Source: a virus (taxonomy: Duplodnaviria; Heunggongvirae; Uroviricota; Caudoviricetes). From it: 13,180 nucleotides of DNA. The stretch is taken from the IMG/VR virus record IMGVR_UViG_2526164632_000020; one strand, written 5' to 3'. A program made the position numbers and the translations under genes. This document shows positions 9 to 13,180 of the stretch, piece by piece (within the stretch, counting starts at the first letter, position 1; each line of letters begins with the position of its first letter). The notes beneath the pieces were generated by a model that searched no databases, was not told the DNA's origin, and saw nothing but the letters and a program-made list of their open reading frames with translations.

Positions 9-139
9 AAAAGTTTGATGCTCAAAGAATTAAACTTCGTAATGAATTACGTGTTCACTCTTGAGACTTGGTATTCATTTTTCGTCTTGCGACGTTAAGA
101 ATCCGTATCTTCGAGTGCCCACACAGATTGTCTGATAAA

Positions 140-152
140 TTGTTAAAGAGCA
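140..152 (-). promoter_or_regulatory. rrn leader boxA antitermination element (TGCTCTTTAACAA)
   Basis: Minus strand reads TGCTCTTTAACAA, an exact match to the rrn boxA consensus, in the expected place between P2 and the 16S start. Confidence 0.65.
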
Positions 153-180
153 GTGCCGCTTCGCTTTTTCTCAGCGGCGC

Positions 181-217
181 GGGGTGTGCATAATACGCTT
201 TCCCGCTACAGAGTCAA
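181..217 (-). promoter_or_regulatory. rRNA operon promoter P2
   Basis: Minus strand TTGACT (-35, plus 212-217), 16-bp spacer, TATTAT (-10, plus 190-195), then GC-rich discriminator CACACCCCGCGCC; matches recalled rrn P2 sequence. Confidence 0.7.
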
Positions 218-298
218 GCATTTATTTTTGCTTTCTCTGCCGGAATTCTCAGGAGAACCCCGCTGACCCGGCGGCGTGTTTGCCGTTGTTCCGTGTCA

Positions 299-336
299 GT
301 GGTGGCGCATTATAGGGAGTTATTCCGGCCTGACAA
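299..336 (-). promoter_or_regulatory. rRNA operon promoter P1
   Basis: Minus strand TTGTCA (-35, plus 331-336), 16-bp spacer, TATAAT (-10, plus 309-314), discriminator GCGCCACCACTG; textbook rrn P1 core. Confidence 0.75.
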
Positions 337-415
337 GCGAAAAATATAAAAACCTTATCGTTCGCTCATTTTTCAGGCAAAACATCTTAAATATAGTCTT
401 TTCCGTCTAACTTAT
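337..415 (-). promoter_or_regulatory. rrn P1 UP element and upstream activating (Fis-site) region
   Basis: A/T-rich tract (GGTTTTTATATTTTTCGC on minus) immediately upstream of the P1 -35; individual Fis sites not resolved by eye. Confidence 0.4.
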
Positions 416-447
416 AGACAAAAACGAGCCCCGAAGGGCTCGTTTTA
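416..447 (-). terminator. Rho-independent terminator downstream of clpB (hairpin usable in both directions)
   Basis: Stem ACGAGCCC / GGGCTCGT (424-431 / 436-443) with loop CGAA; on the minus strand it is followed by TTTTTG, and it sits 5 nt past the clpB stop. Confidence 0.7.
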
Positions 448-451
448 TCAT

Positions 452-3025
452 TTACTGGACGGCAACAATCCGGTCTTCATTAACTTCCAGGCGAATCACT
501 TTACCCGGAACCAATTCACCAGACAGTATTTGCTGTGCCAGCGGGTTTTCGATCTGCTGCTGGATAGCACGTTTCAAAGGACGTGCACCATAGACTGGAT
601 CGTAACCGTTCTCGCTCAGCAGTTTCAGCGCCTCGTCAGAAATGTGGATTTCATAACCACGTTCTTCCAGACGTTTGTACAGACGTTTCAACTGAATCTG
701 CGCAATCGAGGCAATGTGCTGTTCACCCAGCGGATGGAAGACCACCACTTCATCAATACGGTTAATGAATTCCGGACGGAAGTTATGGCTTACCACACCG
801 AGCACCAGCTCTTTCATGTGCGCATAATCCAGTTCACCGAAGCGTTCCTGAATCAAATCGGAACCGAGGTTAGAGGTCATAATGACAACCGTATTACGGA
901 AGTCGACCGTTCTCCCCTGCCCGTCAGTCAGACGACCATCATCCAGTACCTGCAACAGAATGTTGAAGACATCCGGATGCGCTTTTTCCACTTCATCCAG
1001 CAGGATGACGGAATACGGACGACGACGCACAGCTTCGGTCAGGTAGCCACCTTCTTCATAACCGACATATCCCGGAGGCGCACCAACCAGACGAGACACC
1101 GAGTGTTTCTCCATAAACTCGGACATATCGATACGGACCATCGCCTCGTCGCTATCAAACATAAAGTTCGCCAGCGCCTTACAAAGCTCAGTTTTCCCCA
1201 CACCCGTTGGGCCGAGGAACAGGAATGAACCAATCGGGCGATTTGGATCCGCCAACCCCGCACGGCTACGGCGAATAGCGTTAGATACCGCATCAACCGC
1301 TTCGTTCTGACCAATGACGCGATGGTGCAGTTCTTGCTCCATACGCAGCAGTTTTTCGCGCTCGCTTTCCATCATGCGAGAAACCGGAATCCCCGTCCAA
1401 CGCGCCAGCACTTCAGCAATTTCGGCGTCGGTCACTTTATTACGCAACAGACGCATAGTTTTGCCTTCGAGCTGCGTTGCGGCTTCCAGTTGCTTTTCCA
1501 GTTCCGGGATTTTGCCGTATTGCAGTTCAGACATCCGCGCCAGGTCCCCCACACGGCGAGCCTGTTCAATAGCGATTTTCGCCTGTTCCAGTTCCGCTTT
1601 AATGGTCTGCGTACCAGAAAGCGATGCCTTCTCTGCTTTCCACTCTTCTTCTAACTCGGAGTACTGACGTTCTTTGTCGCTCAGTTCTTCGTTGAGCATA
1701 TCCAGGCGTTTTTTACTGGCTTCATCAGACTCTTTCATTAACGCCTGTTGTTCCAGTTTGAGCTGGATGATACGACGATCGAGTCGGTCGAGTTCTTCTG
1801 GTTTTGAGTCAATCTGCATACGAATGCTGGATGCTGCTTCATCGATCAGGTCGATGGCTTTATCCGGCAGCTGACGGTCAGCAATGTAGCGATGAGACAA
1901 CGTCGCCGCTGCAACAATTGCCGGGTCAGTAATTTGCACATGGTGGTGCAATTCGTAACGTTCTTTCAGGCCACGCAGAATCGCAATGGTATCTTCAACA
2001 GAAGGCTCGGCAACAAACACTTTCTGGAAACGACGTTCCAGCGCAGCATCTTTTTCGATGTACTGGCGATATTCGTCAAGCGTCGTGGCACCTACGCAGT
2101 GCAATTCACCACGCGCCAGCGCCGGTTTCAGCATGTTTCCGGCGTCCATTGCGCCATCGGCTTTACCCGCGCCGACCATGGTATGTAATTCGTCGATAAA
2201 CAGGATGACGTTGCCTTCCTGTTTGGCAAGATCGTTAAGCACGCCTTTTAAACGTTCTTCAAACTCACCGCGATATTTCGCCCCAGCCACCAGCGCGCCC
2301 ATATCCAGCGCCAGTACGCGGCGGCCTTTCAATCCTTCCGGCACTTCGCCGTTGATAATACGCTGCGCCAGACCTTCAACGATGGCAGTTTTACCGACGC
2401 CGGGTTCACCAATCAGTACCGGGTTATTTTTAGTACGACGTTGCAGCACCTGAATGGTACGGCGAATTTCTTCATCACGACCAATCACCGGATCGAGTTT
2501 GCCCTGTTCGGCTCGTTCGGTAAGGTCGATGGTATATTTTTTCAAAGCCTGACGTTGGTCTTCAGCACCTTGATCGTTCACGCTTTCACCTCCACGCATT
2601 TGTTCAATCGCTTGAGTAATGTTGGCGGTGGTCGCCCCTGCTGCTTTCAGGATGTCGGCCAGCGTGCCGCGAGACTCAAGTGCCGCCAGAACGAACAGTT
2701 CTGACGAGATAAAGTTATCACCACGTTTTTGCGCCAGCTTGTCGCAAAGATTAAGAACGCGCACCAGATCCTGTGATGGCTGGACATCACCACCAGTACC
2801 TTCAACCTGCGGTAAACGATTTAATGCCTGATTGATATCTGTGCGCAACTGGCCAGCATTTATGCCAGCGGATGTTAATAAAGGACTAACCGAACCCCCT
2901 TCCTGATTCAGCAGGGCGCTCATTAAATGAAGTGGTTCGATAAATTGGTTGTCGTGCCCGAGTGCAAGTGATTGGGCATCGGCAAGAGCAAGCTGGAATT
3001 TATTAGTAAGACGATCCAGACGCAT
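452..3025 (-). CDS. clpB: ClpB disaggregase (Hsp100, AAA+ chaperone), 857 aa
   Basis: ORF with two Walker A motifs ([16 protein letters not shown]) and a coiled-coil middle domain; starts [11 protein letters not shown] at ATG 3025 with SD GGGAGGAG upstream. The ORF-track start at 3037 is an upstream in-frame extension. Confidence 0.97.
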
Positions 3026-3057
3026 AACTCCTCCCATAACGGATCAAAGTTGCTACT

Positions 3058-3095
3058 GGAGATTAAATGAGGTCATCCCTCAATTATTCAAGGTT
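3058..3095 (-). promoter_or_regulatory. sigma-32 heat-shock promoter of clpB
   Basis: Minus strand CTTGAA (plus 3087-3092), 14-nt spacer, CCTCATTTA (plus 3062-3070); close to the sigma-32 consensus CTTGAA-N13-15-CCCCATnT. Confidence 0.6.
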
Positions 3096-3154
3096 ATTGA
3101 CCAGATTAATGTGAAAAGAAAATCACGCGTACCGGATCGTCTTGATTCTTTAGG

Positions 3155-3886
3155 TTATATCAGCCAAATGAAACTTGCCATACGACCGGTGGTCTTGTCG
3201 CGACGATAAGAGAAGAAAGTCTCATTTTCCGTATATGTACAACGGTCGCCGCCGAAAATTTGCTCAACACCCACGTTCGCCAGACGCTGCCGGGCAAGCT
3301 GATAAATATCCGCCAGATACTTATCACCATGCTGAATGAAAGCTGCACTTGCTTTAGCGTCTACTGCCATAAACGCCTCGCGAACCTCCACCCCCACTTC
3401 GAACGCGCGTGGACCAATTGCCGGCCCTAACCAGGCGAGAATATTTTCCGGATTATCAGCAAAACAGGAAACCGTCTCTTCCAGCACGCCTGCGCACAGT
3501 CCACGCCAGCCAGCATGAGCGGCGGCGACTTCCGTTCCCGCTCGATTGCAAAACAGCACAGGGAGGCAGTCGGCAGTCATCACTGCGCAAACCGTGCCGG
3601 GCGTATTGCTATAAGAGGCATCTGCTCGTTTTGAGGCATAAGGTTCGCCAGTAAGCTTAAGCACATCTTTGCCGTGTACCTGCTCAAGCCAGACCGGTTT
3701 AGAAGGCAAATTGCCCGCAGCAAAAAGTCGCTTGCGATTCTCCTCAACGTGATCCGGGTTATCGCCACAATGGGCACCGAGGTTGAGCGAGTCATACGGG
3801 GGCAAGCTCACGCCGCCGATACGAGAAGAGCTACAGGCCGCAACACCTTTTGGTAGCGGCCACTGCGGGACAATCAGCTTACTCAT
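3155..3886 (-). CDS. pgeF: YfiH/PgeF family protein (DUF152; peptidoglycan editing factor / purine nucleoside phosphorylase-like)
   Basis: 243-aa ORF MSKLIVPQWPLPKGVAAC... matching recalled E. coli YfiH; start overlaps the rluD stop by 4 nt. Confidence 0.93.
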   Translation of the reverse strand: MSKLIVPQWPLPKGVAACSSSRIGGVSLPPYDSLNLGAHCGDNPDHVEENRKRLFAAGNLPSKPVWLEQVHGKDVLKLTGEPYASKRADASYSNTPGTVCAVMTADCLPVLFCNRAGTEVAAAHAGWRGLCAGVLEETVSCFADNPENILAWLGPAIGPRAFEVGVEVREAFMAVDAKASAAFIQHGDKYLADIYQLARQRLANVGVEQIFGGDRCTYTENETFFSYRRDKTTGRMASFIWLI

Positions 3887-6496: not shown

Positions 6497-7303
6497 TTAT
6501 GTAGCCGAAATGGTTGTGGTAATAGTCCCCCGAAGCCGCTGCGCTGCTACCTCAAAATAATGATCACTGGTTTCTATACCAATAAATTTTCGCCCTGCTT
6601 TCAGTGCAGCCACACCCGTTGTCCCTGACCCCATAAAAGGATCAAGGACTGTTCCGCCACTATTCACAGTCCTGACCAGTTCCGCCATTAGTTCTTCTGG
6701 TTTTCCGGTCGGGTGCATTTTCTTTGACGGGATAACCGGGTACGTCATGCAACCGTCGAACGGCCCCGAAGGCGATTTATCTAAATGGCCTTTGCTGCCC
6801 CAGACGATGTATTCGCACTGATGCCTGAAATACCCCGTATGGGGTGTTCGTGACCCCCTCCCCTTGTTCCACGCAATGATGCCGCGCCATGTAAAGCCGC
6901 TGGCCTGAAACGCATCGGTTAAAGCTGGTAGTTGTCGCCAGTCAGTAAATACCAGGGCATAACCGCCCGGCCTGACTGCGCGGTGTGCCTGTGCCATCCA
7001 TAATTGTGTCCAGTAAGCCCACGAACGGGCGTCCATGTTTTCACCCGCGAACCCATCAAAGCGGTGAAGGTTCTCGCCGTTCAGATATTTTGCATGGCTG
7101 CCTTGGTTGGTGCGTCCGGCCTTGTGTGTCGCACCCGAACTGTAAGGCGGGTCAGTGATTAAGGCATCAATGCTTTCTGGCTCAATCAGCGGCAATATTT
7201 CCAGCGCATTCCCACGACAGAGCGTGGCATTGTCAGTCTGATAAACCTTAGTGTGTTCCGGTGTATGTGCTGGTTGGTGCTGGATTGCGATCCCCACGGT
7301 CAT
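6497..7303 (-). CDS. Prophage DNA methyltransferase, beta-class N6-adenine/N4-cytosine family (DPPY motif IV before FxGSGTT motif I)
   Basis: 268-aa ORF with DPPY (catalytic motif) near the N-terminus and DPFMGSGTTGVAA (AdoMet motif) near the C-terminus. Start ATG 7303 lies only 2 nt after SD AGGAG; in-frame GTG 7297 has better spacing. Target specificity unknown. Confidence 0.85.
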   Translation of the reverse strand: MTVGIAIQHQPAHTPEHTKVYQTDNATLCRGNALEILPLIEPESIDALITDPPYSSGATHKAGRTNQGSHAKYLNGENLHRFDGFAGENMDARSWAYWTQLWMAQAHRAVRPGGYALVFTDWRQLPALTDAFQASGFTWRGIIAWNKGRGSRTPHTGYFRHQCEYIVWGSKGHLDKSPSGPFDGCMTYPVIPSKKMHPTGKPEELMAELVRTVNSGGTVLDPFMGSGTTGVAALKAGRKFIGIETSDHYFEVAAQRLRGTITTTISAT

Positions 7304-7445
7304 AACTCCTCATGTGTGTGGGGTGCTCGATGGCTCTCGTTATCTGGTTAAGTGTTTTGCAGCGCGGACATTTTATTTCAATGTAGTGAAATGAGGCGCG
7401 GGCAAGTAGTTTGTTGCAATTTTTGCATCGTACATTTTGCGTCAT
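7248..7445 (-). CDS. com: Com-like zinc-finger translational regulator (Mu Com family)
   Basis: 65-aa ORF MTQNVRCKNCNKLLARASFHYIEIKCPRCK...EHPT, matching the recalled Mu Com pattern (RCKNCNKLL...IEIRCPRCK...EHPT). SD AAGAGGTG 7 nt upstream of ATG 7445; 3' end overlaps the methyltransferase start by 56 nt. Confidence 0.75.
   Translation of the reverse strand: MTQNVRCKNCNKLLARASFHYIEIKCPRCKTLNQITRAIEHPTHMRSYDRGDRNPAPTSTYTGTH
7292..7323 (-). promoter_or_regulatory. mRNA stem-loop sequestering the methyltransferase SD and start codon (mom-like translation inhibition structure)
   Basis: On the minus-strand transcript CCCCAC (plus 7318-7323) pairs with GTGGGG (plus 7292-7297); the 20-nt loop holds SD AGGAG and ATG 7303, and the alternative GTG start is in the 3' arm. 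Confidence 0.45.
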
Positions 7446-7489
7446 TTGCGGCACCTCTTGTGTGGTTACTGCTGCCGATATGATAACAA

Positions 7490-7527
7490 ATCGATCGTTT
7501 TTATCGATCGGATTTATTGCATCGATC
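7490..7527 (-). promoter_or_regulatory. Cluster of three ATCGATC(G) repeats (three GATC Dam sites) upstream of the com promoter region
   Basis: ATCGATCG at 7490-7497 and 7503-7510, ATCGATC at 7521-7527, lying 45-82 nt upstream of the com ATG; resembles the Dam/OxyR-controlled region upstream of the Mu mom promoter. Confidence 0.4.
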
Positions 7528-7574
7528 TGTTATGCCTATTACTTATGAGTGGTGTTACCCTCATTTGTGAGGGT

Positions 7575-7612
7575 GACAAAAAGAAAACCCGCAGTTTTTA
7601 CGCTGCGGGTTT
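7575..7612 (-). terminator. Rho-independent terminator of the zinc-ribbon/TM2 gene
   Basis: Stem AAACCCGCAG / CTGCGGGTTT with 8-nt loop; on the minus strand followed by TCTTTTTGTC; 26 nt past the stop at 7638. Confidence 0.65.
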
Positions 7613-7637
7613 GTCATTCTGATTCGCCCACTAGGCA

Positions 7638-7934
7638 TTAGCCATATTTGCGGGCAAAGTCTTCATCAGAGGTGCATAGATAGATAAAAAACTCAATAAA
7701 TGCCACGATTGCCGGAATGAATGTCCAGCAAAAAATAAGGTAAAGGAATCCTTGCCCCACTTTACCTAAATAAAATTTGTGTGCACCAAGACCACCTAAA
7801 AAGAAAGCCAGTAGTGCGGCTGTCATTCTGCTTTTTGAACTTGCTGTTCTTTGAGGTGCTCCACAATTGGGGCAGGATGTGGCATCTTTATGTATTTCCT
7901 TGCCGCATCCGCGACAAAATACCATTTCACTCAT
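7638..7934 (-). CDS. Small membrane protein with N-terminal zinc-ribbon (CxxC...CxxC) and TM2-like domain; prophage cargo of unknown function
   Basis: 98-aa ORF MSEMVFCRGCGKEIHKDATSCPNCGAPQ followed by two hydrophobic helices with a TM2-type motif (LGGLGAHKFYLGKVGQG); SD-like AAAGGAA upstream. Confidence 0.7.
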   Translation of the reverse strand: MSEMVFCRGCGKEIHKDATSCPNCGAPQRTASSKSRMTAALLAFFLGGLGAHKFYLGKVGQGFLYLIFCWTFIPAIVAFIEFFIYLCTSDEDFARKYG

Positions 7935-8069
7935 AAAGAGTTCCTTTCAAATTTAAATAAGCGTTAAACCCACCACTCTTACTGGTGGGCCTCAATTTAA
8001 ATTTGGGTGCCACTTCGACCATACCCTGGCAACCGATTGACGGGGGATTGCTCCCCCGTCGCGGTTTCC

Positions 8070-8210
8070 TTACTGCTTACACTGTAAGAACGCCGCAAAC
8101 TCCGCTCCCCAGAAGCTCATCCGTATTTCGCACAGCGAACCATGCAGCATCCAGATGATGAGGATTGCCGTCACGCAGAACGTGATGGCCGTAAGCGATT
8201 TTTGCGACAT
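8070..8210 (-). CDS. hok: Hok/Gef-family type I toxin (46 aa), below the ORF-track length cut-off
   Basis: Hand translation of the minus strand from ATG 8210: MSQKSLTAITFCVTAILIIWMLHGSLCEIRMSFWGAEFAAFLQCKQ*. Single TM helix followed by the Hok signature SLCEIR...AAFL.C; SD AAGGAG 8 nt upstream. Confidence 0.6.
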   Translation of the reverse strand: MSQKSLTAITFCVTAILIIWMLHGSLCEIRMSFWGAEFAAFLQCKQ

Positions 8211-8340
8211 AGCACTTGCTCCTTTTCCGGAGAGGCGCTAACCTTTCACTTGTCAAGGTAATGCGGTTAGGGCCTCGGTTAAACAGAAATGTTTTCCGGG
8301 GCCTTTCCACATCCGGCCTTCGGGTATTCCCTCCGACCAT
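8077..8340 (-). CDS. mok: mok-like overlapping reading frame (modulator of killing) required for hok translation
   Basis: Open frame starting upstream of hok, overlapping nearly all of it in another frame and ending 7 nt before the hok stop, as in hok/mok loci. True start uncertain: ATG 8340 or GTG 8310 (GAAGG 7 nt upstream). Confidence 0.35.
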   Translation of the reverse strand: MVGGNTRRPDVERPRKTFLFNRGPNRITLTSERLAPLRKRSKCYVAKIAYGHHVLRDGNPHHLDAAWFAVRNTDELLGSGVCGVLTV

Positions 8341-8380
8341 CAGCCGAAAGGCACCCGCGCGTAATCTATCGCTTTTTTGT
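8290..8380 (+). ncRNA. sok: Predicted Sok-like antisense RNA (position approximate)
   Basis: Expected by analogy with hok/sok: a short antisense transcript covering the mok translation-initiation region. A plus-strand T6 run at 8373-8378 could be its terminator tail; no convincing promoter found by eye. Confidence 0.15.
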
Positions 8381-8400
8381 TACTCCGGCAATTCTGCCTG

Positions 8401-8661
8401 TTAATTCTGAGATAAAGGCAAGCTCATCTGATTGTTTCCCCTGTGTGAAGCTGGCAGCTCATGCCACGGGATACCTTCTGAAGAGTGAACGCCGGAGGCA
8501 TGTTTCGATGTGAATTTATGGAAAGCTTCCAGTGTTGAGAAGCATACGCCGCATTCCAGATTGTTACACTGGTAATACTTTTGCCGCACGGTGTTTGAAT
8601 CATTTTCCGGACGACTGGTGCGGATACGGGCAGATGCGCCACAAAGCGGACAACGGAACAT
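8401..8661 (-). CDS. ogr: Ogr/Delta-family zinc-finger late-gene transcription activator (P2-like)
   Basis: 86-aa ORF MFRCPLCGASARIRTSR...YYQCNNLECGVCF with the four-Cys Ogr zinc finger (P2 Ogr begins MFHCPLCQHAAHARTSR...YHQCQNVNCSATF); C-terminus diverges; SD AGGGAGG upstream. Confidence 0.8.
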   Translation of the reverse strand: MFRCPLCGASARIRTSRPENDSNTVRQKYYQCNNLECGVCFSTLEAFHKFTSKHASGVHSSEGIPWHELPASHRGNNQMSLPLSQN

Positions 8662-8676
8662 AGCGACCTCCCTTAA

Positions 8677-10729
<2,053 letters not shown>

Positions 10730-10734
10730 TTATC
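10730..10734. repeat. Target-site duplication TTATC (right copy)
   Basis: TTATC immediately outside the right inverted repeat. Confidence 0.7.
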
Positions 10735-11771
10735 AATGGTGTGCTCGGCTTTTGCAATGATCCAGTCCTGATTATCAATCTCGCTTTTAAATCCTGTTAC
10801 CGTGCCATGCATTTCGGGGTAGAGTTCTGCACGTCCACGCGCCAGCGTGATGGAGAATGATGCGGCTCCGCGTTGTAGTTGCTGCCACTTTGCCGCCGCT
10901 GCGCGTCTTGCTGCCTGCTCGTTCTGATAAGTCTTGCGTAACACAAACACATTGCCATCCGCGCCTTCCATATAGTCACCTTCACGGCTGCTGCTTTTCT
11001 CCTTTTTGGGTTTTGGCGGTTTACGGCGTTTCACGCTGACTTTTTTCTTTTTCCCGTAATTAAGATCAAGCCAGTAGGCGCGTACCCCCGTATACGCCTC
11101 GCGGTCAGCAATACGGAACTGATGGCGATCGCCGCTGCTGTGTGTAATGGCGAACGAGGGCAACGGCTGGCCCTGTGCGTTCACGCCACCACCTGGCATG
11201 ATGAATAACAGATTACCGCTTTTTACCGTGGTGATTGCGCCCAGCATTTCCGCCATGCGCGTAAGGAAGGACATGTCGCTTTCTTCGGTCTGGTCGGCGT
11301 GGTCGATTTCGATATCCATCAGCATTTCGCTGATTTGCGGTTTCAGACCATACCGATGAGCGATGGCGGATACCACACGCTCAACGGTCACATCATGCCA
11401 GGACACCTCACGTTTAACGTTAAATTCATCCCGAAAATCTGCGCTTCTGGCTGAAACAGTCAGCCTGTCCGGCGGTCCTTCGTGAGCGATTTCATCAACA
11501 ATGTAAGTGCCTTTTTCTGTCAGCGGTTCTCCCTTCCAGCCAATGAGAACCGTCAGGCGCGCGCCCCGTGGCGGTAGCTGCAACTGACCATCCGCATCAT
11601 CCAACGTGATGGTGAGCTGGTCCGCCTCAAACCCCGGTTGTCGGTCAGTGACAGGCTCATCAGGCGCTCTGCCACGCCTGACAGCGTTTTACCCTCCGCG
11701 AGAATATCAAAATCCGGCATTTTCACGGGGTCTGTGCCCTGACTGAGCAATTGCATGGTGGTGTCGGTCAT
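10730..11771 (-). pseudogene. P2-like tail protein D (late control gene D family), frameshifted near 11625-11637 and 3'-truncated by the IS insertion
   Basis: Start ATG 11771 (SD GGAGGA upstream): MTDTTMQLLSQGTDPVKMPDFDILAEGKTLSGVAERLMSLSLTDNRG, then the frame shifts by 1 nt at a GGGGTTT run into ...FEADQLTITLDDADGQLQLPPRGARL... (the 296-aa ORF). The reading frame runs into the IS right end at 10729. Confidence 0.85.
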
Positions 11772-11928
11772 CTGCTCCTCCCCTGTGCGGCATGGTCGCA
11801 TGTGCGTGCGGAGGGGGTTACTGCTTTTTGTTGTCGCCGGGTCGGGAGAACGGCGCAGGGGTGAGATTACGCGCGTGGTGGGTGATGATTGTTGCCGAAT
11901 CATTTAACGGATACAAGGGGCTGAAGCT

Positions 11929-13112
11929 ATGAGTGAAACTCGTTTTCATGGTGCCCGTGTTACGGAAATACCGACCTGGTAACAGCGATTAACGATGTTG
12001 ATTCCAGCGTTATCGGTATCGTGGCAACGGCGGATGATGCGGACGCGAAGCTGTTCCCGCTGAGCAAGCCCACACTGCTGACCCGCGTTAATGACGTGCT
12101 GGGAAAATGCGGGACAACGGGGACGCTTTATCGTGCGCTTAAGGCCATCGCAGACCAGGTGAGCACAAAGGTGATCGTCGTTCGCGTGGCTGAACACAAA
12201 GAAGAAGACGGAAAGACGCAGGATCAACTGGTTATCGGTGGTTCTGAAGATGACGGCAGCTATACGGGGATGTATGCGCTGCTTGTTGCAGAGCAGGATG
12301 AAAGCATCGGATACCGTCCGCGTATTCTGGCCGCGCCGGAGCTGGACACGGAGGCGGTGACAAAATCCCTGTGCGTGATTGCGGGTAAACTGCGCGCGTT
12401 TGTGTATGCCTCATGTCACGGCTGTAACACGATGGCTGAGGCGATTACCTACCGCCAGAAATTCAACGAACGTGAGGTGATGCTCTTATGGCCGGACTTC
12501 ATCGCCTACAACCCGAAAAGTGGCAAAAACGAAACGTTCCCCGCGCCTGCCTATGCGTGCGGCCTTCGTGCGTACATTGACCATGAGCAGGGCTGGCACA
12601 AATCGCTGTCCAACGTTCCTGTTAAAAATGTGCTGGGAATGTCCAGGCATGTGTTCTGGTCGTTGCAGGCCGAAGACAGTGATGCCAACAGCCTCAACAA
12701 CAAAGAAATCACGACCATTATTCGTCGCAACGGGTTCCGCTTCTGGGGCAACCGCACACCGGAAACGAACGCCTACATCTTTGAGGTGTATACCCGAACC
12801 GCACAGGTGCTGGCTGATTCAATTGCAGAAGCGCAGTTTGAAACCATCGACAGTCCACTGACGCCTGCGAACGTGAAGGATGTTATCAGTGCCATCAGGG
12901 CAAAACTGGATTCACTGGTTACTGCCGGGAAACTGATTGGCGCGGAGTGCTGGTATGACGTGGTGGATAACAGCACCACGGATTTACGTCAGGGACGTGT
13001 GCGTATTCGCTATAAATATACGCCCGTTCCGCCACTGGAAGACATGGAGCTTTACCAGACGTTTACTGATGAATACTTTGAACCTGCATTTGCGGTGCTG
13101 GGAGGTGCCTGA
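11929..13112 (+). CDS. P2-like tail sheath protein FI, with an N-terminal -1 frameshift near 11964-11969 (possibly a pseudogene)
   Basis: ATG 11929 with SD AAGGGG gives MSETRFHGARVTEI...* (stop 11980); the 363-aa ORF in the adjacent frame (...DADAKLFPL...GFRFWGNRT...YKYTPVPPLE...) carries the rest of the sheath. Span is 1184 nt, i.e. 1185 - 1. The intact downstream ORF begins at GTG 12021. Confidence 0.85.
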
Positions 13113-13180
13113 TGGCTGTGCCAAAACATCTTCGCTTTTTTACGCTGTTTGTGGATGGTGAAAACGAAGTGGGTAAGGTG
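13112..13180 (+). CDS. P2-like tail tube protein FII, 5' end only (runs off the window)
   Basis: ATG 13112 overlaps the FI stop (TGATG); hand translation MAVPKHLRFFTLFVDGENEVGKV resembles the recalled P2 FII N-terminus (MA.P.KL...F.NG). Only 23 codons are in the window. Confidence 0.55.
   Translation, partial: MAVPKHLRFFTLFVDGENEVGKV

Follow-up and report, generated by a model that had tools for sequence, protein, structure and literature searches.

A com-methyltransferase operon at the right end of a P2-like prophage

The stretch of DNA analysed here, referred to throughout as the window, is 13,180 nt long and corresponds to positions 2978666-2991845 of the E. coli 89-3156 chromosome. The right end of a P2-like prophage, inserted beside raiA, occupies 6497-13180 of the window. 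Gene D is followed on the minus strand by ogr, a hok/gef toxin gene, a TM2-domain gene, a terminator, com and a methyltransferase gene. The features of the operon and its upstream boundary are as follows.

7585-7612, minus strand: strong intrinsic terminator, which ends upstream ogr-hok-TM2 transcription and is kept in all P2-like relatives
7248-7445, minus strand: com, encoding a 65-aa zinc-ribbon Com homologue (PF10122, E=9.5e-12)
7292-7323, minus strand: RNA hairpin CCCCAC...GUGGGG (-18.4 kcal/mol, z=-2.2)
6497-7303, minus strand: cargo methyltransferase gene, beta-class, 268 aa (PF01555; DPPY then FMGSG)

As the terminator (7612-7585 in the direction of transcription) isolates the com-methyltransferase operon from the genes upstream, the operon needs a promoter of its own. 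The com gene is preceded by a Shine-Dalgarno sequence, AAGAGGTG, at 7459-7452, and its product is 49% identical to Mu Com and 59% identical to lambdoid Com. The 3' end of com overlaps the start of the methyltransferase gene (7303). There, the hairpin encloses both the methyltransferase Shine-Dalgarno sequence GAGGAG (7311-7306) and the AUG (7303-7301), and its 5' arm is formed by the invariant 'EHPT' codons of com. A CCCCAC/GUGGGG hairpin is also found in Mu, Mu-like, lambdoid and Citrobacter-type com cassettes, across cargo types, and by its sequence the predicted hairpin of the window corresponds to the translation-inhibiting structure of Mu mom that is relieved by Com. Separately, we note a fourth GATC, at 7289-7292 in the 3' arm of the hairpin (GTGGGGATCG), which is invariant in all P2-like copies.

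The cargo enzyme is an N6/N4 amino-methyltransferase with a DPPY motif and not a Mom homologue, which corrects an earlier description. Its nearest solved relatives, M1.HpyAVI ('DpnA') and CcrM (E ~1e-20), are too distant for its recognition site to be inferred from them. We considered and rejected several identities for the enzyme: M.EcoGII/M.EcoGI, with 349 aa and a different prophage context; M.EcoMIV (ST131), a PF02086 (D12-class) enzyme; and membership of the Hia5/Hin1523 family, to which there is no meaningful BLASTP similarity. Methyltransferases linked to com and replacing mom have been described in Mu-like prophages (Hin1523, Nme1821, Hia5) and in phage B3 (ORF47/48); enzymes of the Hin1523/Nme1821/Hia5 type are silent in lysogens, and Com-type translational control has been proposed for them (PMC3299994). 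In Hin1523-type systems, as in the window, the gene that directly follows a com homologue encodes a DNA methyltransferase and not Mom. However, these enzymes are alpha-class, Dam-like and non-specific, and unrelated to the beta-class methyltransferase of the window, and the Haemophilus com leaders of such systems contain no GATC cluster.

The interval between ogr and com (7638-7934 and 8070-8210) contains the zinc-ribbon/TM2-domain membrane protein gene and the hok/gef toxin gene. The TM2 gene, which the 89-3156 prophage carries, is missing from phage Chuche and E. coli M6, and the interval looks like a variable cargo slot. Further along the prophage, the tail tube gene (window 11155-11666) carries a frameshift annotation; thus, the prophage may be defective.

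Three GATC sites are clustered upstream of com

The initial annotation had described three ATCGATC(G) repeats packed into 38 bp, 13 and 18 bp apart and 45-82 nt upstream of the com start. Both the repeats, at 7490, 7503 and 7521, and their distance from the com ATG, at 7445 on the minus strand, are as it described them.

7490-7527, no strand assigned: cluster of three ATCGATC(G) repeats with three Dam GATC sites, by motif match
7524-7527, com strand: GATC site 1, at -82 from the com ATG, distal to com
7506-7509, com strand: GATC site 2, at -64 from the com ATG
7493-7496, com strand: GATC site 3, at -51 from the com ATG, proximal to com

On the plus strand, the ATCGATC copies occupy 7490-7496, 7503-7509 and 7521-7527. 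The first two (7490 and 7503) extend to ATCGATCG, and the third repeat reads ATCGATCT. The GATC cores start at 7493, 7506 and 7524, giving start-to-start spacings of 13 and 18 bp.

Whether such an arrangement is improbable depends on the motif that is counted. ATCGATC occurs 7 times in the window against 2.0 expected, with at least 7 in 2 of 200 shuffles, and the expected number of triplets of this 7-mer within 31 bp is ~3e-6 for the window, in agreement with the earlier statement that the repeats are unlikely by chance. Finding three bare GATCs within 31 bp is no rare event (P ~0.21 under random placement of the window's 47 sites); what exceeds expectation is thus the repetition of the longer motif and where it lies, rather than the density of GATC. 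The CGATCG-N7-CGATCG arrangement was itself flagged on both strands as an intrinsic terminator or attenuator. We rejected this candidate as a by-product of two self-complementary hexamers: its T-tract is poor, and the true terminator lies 75 bp upstream.

The cluster has the spacing of the Mu mom operator but lies closer to com

Dam/OxyR control of Mu mom is textbook knowledge, but is treated as a peculiarity of Mu. As summarized in three papers, mom is controlled by OxyR and Dam, activated by C and translationally activated by Com (PMC4461284, PMC2909390, PMC3299994); OxyR/MomR is the reader of its three GATCs (Bolker and Kahmann 1989, Hattman and Sun 1997, as cited in PMC4461284 and PMC2909390). 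The spacing of the GATCs in the window is identical to that in Mu, 18 and 13 bp on the com strand and in the same orientation (window 7527/7509/7496; GATCs 1160/1178/1191 in the Mu operator reference, L003). When the two operators are aligned, all three GATCs are superposed (z=5.3), and none of 500 shuffles aligns as well. The window also shares with Mu mom the OxyR half-site layout, the overlap of com with the cargo start and a CCCAC/GUGGG hairpin over that start.

The initial annotation had suggested a Dam/OxyR switch like that of Mu mom, and the sequence comparison supports it, through the 18/13 spacing, the z of 5.3, a 15/20 match to the OxyR consensus and a conserved GATC pair, the last two of which are described below. 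Its further claim that the layout is the same as in Mu is correct for the operator itself but not for its position. The proximal GATC is at -78 from the com ATG in Mu and at -51 in the window, so that the window cluster is 27 bp closer to com, which leaves no room for the Mu C-binding site and a C-dependent promoter. In Mu, the operator is followed by a C-activator site and an out-of-phase promoter that depends on C, an arrangement that the window does not have. The phages differ as well, Mu being transposable with Mom as cargo and the window phage being P2-like with a beta-class methyltransferase.

In its architecture, the window cluster also resembles agn43 (flu), a single OxyR site with three GATCs at 19 and 13 bp; the window is likewise single-site, at 18/13, and the agn43 core ATCGATCGTTTATATCGATCGAT is nearly identical to the window's ATCGATCGTTTTTATCGATCGGAT. 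The best window-agn43 alignment is out of register. According to PMC2909390, the agn43 operator abuts the core promoter and OxyR is therefore purely a repressor there. As the annotated leader RNA IsrC begins at GATC-I, the agn43 site starts at ~+1, whereas the window site is predicted at -57 to -21. Heritable ON/OFF states have been demonstrated for agn43, whereas the likeness of the window is one of sequence architecture. An agn43-like promoter upstream of the cluster (TAATAG-N8-GATC occurs in both) was considered and rejected, having a poor -10 and no match in the promoter scan. As a side observation, the agn43 and Mu mom operators (L007 290-365 and L003 1140-1220) align with z=14, and either aligns with the window at ~5-6, which suggests a common origin of these two classic operators.

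A third point of reference is P22 gtr, where GATC pairs 13 bp apart lie inside OxyR half-sites at -110/-97 and -46/-33 (PMC2909390). In P22 gtr/Salmonella opvAB, which are also phage-borne, the promoter-proximal site overlaps the promoter and produces the OFF state (PMC2909390). In the gtr region, two pairs of GATCs (four sites) and three half-sites provide alternative activating (AB) and repressing (BC) positions, whereas the window has two good half-sites, a third position scoring 3/10 and no evident activating position. According to the gtr paper, it is not known even for mom whether expression varies in phase (PMC2909390).

The GATC sites fall in a predicted OxyR tetramer site

We scored the OxyR consensus ATAGnTnnnAnCTAT-N7-ATAGnTnnnAnCTAT, which is degenerate, on both strands of the window (26,288 positions). 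The resulting features are as follows.

7494-7530, no strand assigned: predicted OxyR tetramer site, 37 bp, 15/20 to ATAGnTnnnAnCTAT-N7-ATAGnTnnnAnCTAT
7494-7508: proximal OxyR half-site ATCGaTaaaAaCGAT, 8/10, bracketed by the 13-bp GATC pair
7516-7530: distal OxyR half-site, 7/10, containing GATC site 1 and lying 22 bp upstream of the proximal half-site

The top scores are all on the GATC cluster, with two registers at 15/20 and a third at 14/20, and scores elsewhere in the window do not exceed 13/20. The alternative register with an equal score, 7503-7539, overlaps 7494-7530. By the same scoring, Mu mom reaches 13/20 and agn43 14/20, both of them Dam-sensitive OxyR sites proven by experiment, compared to 15/20 for the window site. 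Half-site scores of at least 7/10 occur at just 0.3% of window positions, and the GATCs of the window fall inside the OxyR contact tetranucleotides. The neighbouring half-site positions score 3/10 downstream and, by hand inspection, ~4/10 upstream. Thus, the window contains two good half-sites and one 13-bp pair, and a second, alternative OxyR position of the kind made of at least three half-sites and two GATC pairs is absent from it. With one OxyR position evident, OxyR would act purely as a repressor.

The predicted operator overlaps a predicted promoter

The promoter scan gives the following match.

7480-7507, minus strand: predicted sigma-70 promoter of the com-methyltransferase operon, 9/12 match

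It consists of a -35 TCGATA (7507-7502), a 16-nt spacer, a TG (7488-7487) and a -10 TATCAT (7485-7480), which would place the transcription start near 7473. GATC site 2 overlaps the predicted -35 and GATC site 3 lies within the spacer. Between the proximal GATC and the com ATG there is the -10-like TATCAT, a leader of ~30 nt, the Shine-Dalgarno sequence and nothing else. The match is the single sigma-70-like one in 7200-8000; as one match is not above the 1.8 +/- 1.3 found in shuffles, it remains a prediction. No sigma-70 match above the scan threshold is present in the lambdoid and Citrobacter leaders.

Natural deletion variants lend the predicted promoter some support. In these variants, 31 bp have been lost by a repeat-to-repeat deletion from the first to the third repeat, leaving one GATC in L009 (region 1350-1500) and none in L060-L062 (1400-1500). 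In these alleles TAGGCA comes to lie 16 nt from an unchanged TGtTATCAT, which creates a new promoter-like element with the same -10 and a new -35. The deletion alleles of L009 and L060-62 are candidates for 'unlocked' versions of the operon. Together with L041, the one P2-like variant with a broken GATC core, they show that the operator is dispensable. In L041 the change is in the middle GATC, which has become GAAC at ~1437-1440, -64 from the com ATG at 1501.

Taken together, the closer position of the cluster, the lack of a C-activator site and the overlap with the sole sigma-70-like promoter suggest repression by promoter occlusion, and the operator most likely overlaps the promoter. Such a layout would resemble that of agn43 and the OFF site of P22 gtr more than that of Mu.

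The placement of site 2 on the predicted -35 and of site 3 in the spacer would also suit a mechanism without OxyR, in which Dam methylation acts directly on RNA polymerase, as at IS10 pIN, or SeqA binds the hemimethylated cluster; in the SeqA version, binding after replication would tie expression to the moment at which the replication fork passes. Site 3 is separated from site 1 by 31 bp (~three helical turns) and from site 2 by 13 bp, both of them distances that SeqA can bridge. We consider such a mechanism unlikely, as it leaves unexplained the OxyR half-site pattern of the flanks (ATCGnTnnnAnCGAT), the presence in all groups of a second half-site at a distance of 22 bp, and the in-register homology to the Mu operator, at which OxyR is the established reader. 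In addition, the cluster is well upstream of the promoter in Mu-like leaders, so an effect on the -35 is not the conserved function.

A phage protein is another potential reader of the repeats. Mu mom requires the activator C (PMC4461284), and P2 Ogr, a Mu C-like activator, the prophage repressor or Cox could bind the repeats and time late expression. The operon lies just downstream of ogr, and the lambdoid and Citrobacter leaders are without a good sigma-70 promoter, hinting at a need for activation. However, the leader contains no TGT-N12-ACA dyad of the type that lies near -55 in Ogr-dependent late promoters, and the earlier suggestion of a phage-activator site finds no support in it; the sole exact match in the window is inside the com coding region, at 7353-7370. 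This is a weak test for Ogr, because the exact pattern also misses the late promoter expected upstream of the sheath gene. Likewise, a Mu C-type TTAT-N6-ATAA dyad is absent from the window, whereas the Mu-like contig L106 has one, and a P2-like phage is not known to have a C protein. As the element is shared by three unrelated phage types whose regulators differ, the evidence points to a host factor, and we regard control by a phage regulator as very improbable.

The GATC pair is retained in com cassettes with different cargo

We compared com loci from genomes (28) and from viral contigs (80). In P2-like com-methyltransferase leaders, the GATCs are at -82/-64/-51 from the com ATG in nearly all distinct variants, and the three-site spacing is thus conserved in homologous prophages, as the initial annotation had asked to see. 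Lambdoid com-mom leaders have a GATC pair at -64/-51, and Citrobacter-type leaders, in which com precedes a C5-cytosine methyltransferase, have one at -65/-52. Mu, L104 and L106 carry the 18/13 triple ~25-30 bp further from com than the P2-like leaders do, and a further Mu-like group has the 18-bp pair only. A 13-bp GATC pair upstream of com is therefore found in Mu-like, lambdoid, Citrobacter-type and P2-like loci, with three cargo genes. Among the collected loci, those from Pasteurellaceae, Marinomonas, Acinetobacter and more distant sources have no GATC cluster. The Stenotrophomonas P2-like phage Smp131 has no com leader and hence no operator.

The half-site pattern follows the same distribution. 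In all enterobacterial groups the half-site of the pair scores 6-8/10, the upstream half 4-7/10 and the downstream half poorly. From one group to another, the A/T-rich spacer within the pair is found in inverted orientation, which fits a palindromic protein site.

These comparisons bear on the possibility, raised in the initial annotation, that the repeats are the target of the methyltransferase itself; ATCGAT or CGATCG, for example, could be its recognition site and serve autoregulation or self-marking. The repeats do contain both palindromes, and the specificity of the enzyme is not transferable from its nearest solved relatives. Nevertheless, the same GATC pair stands before com whether the cargo is Mom, a C5-cytosine methyltransferase or a beta-class methyltransferase; being constant across three unrelated cargo enzymes, it travels with com and not with the enzyme. 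Divergent copies change CGATCG to CGATCA and GATCG to GATCA while keeping the GATC core, and in the window itself the third repeat is not CGATCG. The own-target idea is left without support, and we hold it to be extremely unlikely.

A last alternative is that the cluster is a non-functional relic of a Mu-derived com cassette, captured by a P2-like phage, in a lineage too young to have lost it. Within the P2-like group the data would allow this. The leader is ~98% conserved overall, and GATC columns are not significantly better kept than their neighbours (1/12 versus 6/23 variable, Fisher p=0.38); since the cluster has been deleted in some variants, it is not essential. The leader is present in 173 of 5426 complete E. 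coli genomes, those of 89-3156, MIN10 and E2855 among them, and in the most divergent of these copies the changes are beside the GATCs and in the spacers, with the three cores and their spacing kept. As conservation within the group is not significant, the weight rests on the comparison between groups. Here, alignments of P2-like, lambdoid and Citrobacter-type leaders with one another give z=1.7-2.8, yet the pair is at -64/-51 (+/-1) in all three leader types although the flanks have diverged beyond recognition. Moreover, the OxyR match of the window is better than Mu's own. We therefore find a relic highly unlikely. What disfavours all four alternatives is that the element follows com, has OxyR half-site geometry and survives where the flanks have diverged.

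A model for a putative Dam- and OxyR-sensitive control cassette

Our data make it likely that the three GATC repeats form a Dam-methylation-sensitive OxyR repressor site, predicted from sequence, on the promoter of a prophage methyltransferase operon. In this model, the operator would be the 5' end of a portable control cassette made up of operator, promoter, com and RNA hairpin, and enterobacterial phages would place the operator-com-hairpin cassette before DNA-modification genes. The operator would cover ~-57 to -21 of the predicted com-methyltransferase promoter. When the GATCs are unmethylated or hemimethylated, an OxyR tetramer could bind, with one dimer occupying the half-site that the 13-bp GATC pair brackets and a second dimer that of the third GATC, and would occlude the -35 and the spacer and so shut off transcription. 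When the sites are methylated by Dam, OxyR would be unable to bind and the operon would be transcribed. Com would then bind the mRNA and open the hairpin, freeing the buried methyltransferase ribosome-binding site and start codon. OxyR binding, its methylation sensitivity, the promoter position and Com-dependent translation are each inferred from the likeness to known operators. Counting against the OxyR reading, in a dam+ cell the GATCs should be methylated most of the time.

Dam/OxyR control at Mu mom, Com-dependent translation and methyltransferases that replace mom in Mu-like prophages have been published (PMC4461284, PMC2909390, PMC3299994). Our literature search found no account of P2-like or lambdoid prophages that describes a GATC/OxyR operator before com or places it on the com promoter, and two methylome papers (O145:H28, ST131) contain nothing on this locus. 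The comparison presents the operator as part of a mobile cassette that is common to Mu-like, lambdoid and P2-like enterobacterial phages and has no fewer than three unrelated DNA-modification enzymes under its control; in P2-like phages, this operator seems to have shifted to the promoter itself. Should this be confirmed, it would explain the silence of many prophage methyltransferases in methylome surveys, a 13-bp GATC pair at -64/-51 of com would predict Dam/OxyR-dependent methyltransferases, and phase-variable methyltransferase expression in E. coli lysogens would become a possibility.

More speculatively, competition between Dam and OxyR might set heritable ON and OFF lineages, so that the prophage methyltransferase would be phase-variable and the cassette a portable, host-read controller of interchangeable enzymes. 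The agn43-type architecture of a single site with three GATCs, together with an apparently self-sufficient sigma-70 promoter in a resident prophage, makes such competition possible; we consider this outcome doubtful. If it were true, the methyltransferase would be phase-variable in ~3% of E. coli strains, and one epigenetic mark, that of Dam, would switch a second epigenetic writer without repeat-tract slippage. Restriction evasion or the methylome state of the host would be switched along with the methyltransferase.

Other observations on com loci

Several of the collected loci deserve comment in their own right. In Citrobacter braakii (L010 1501-2707), com is followed by a C5-cytosine methyltransferase (GTPCQ), with the same GATC pair and start-codon hairpin; C5-cytosine methyltransferases are a third cargo class of the com cassette. 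In Smp131 (L120 556-1441), a com-like 'translational regulator' gene abuts the portal gene, and the next gene encodes a methyltransferase 46% identical to that of the window; the Smp131 cassette is expressed within a late operon. The contig L009 is labelled Vagococcus sp., yet an enterobacterial-type IHF-alpha gene (2581-2880) adjoins its P2-like prophage, and it is probably a contaminant or a mislabelled contig. Finally, between the terminator and the GATC operator the window contains an inverted repeat, CACCCTCA-caaa-TGAGGGT, at 7556-7577. Relatives either have a perfect 10-bp stem (GGTGCCCTCAcaaaTGAGGGCACC) in its place or have lost it via an 18-bp deletion, and the repeat may act as a second terminator hairpin or as a binding site for a protein.
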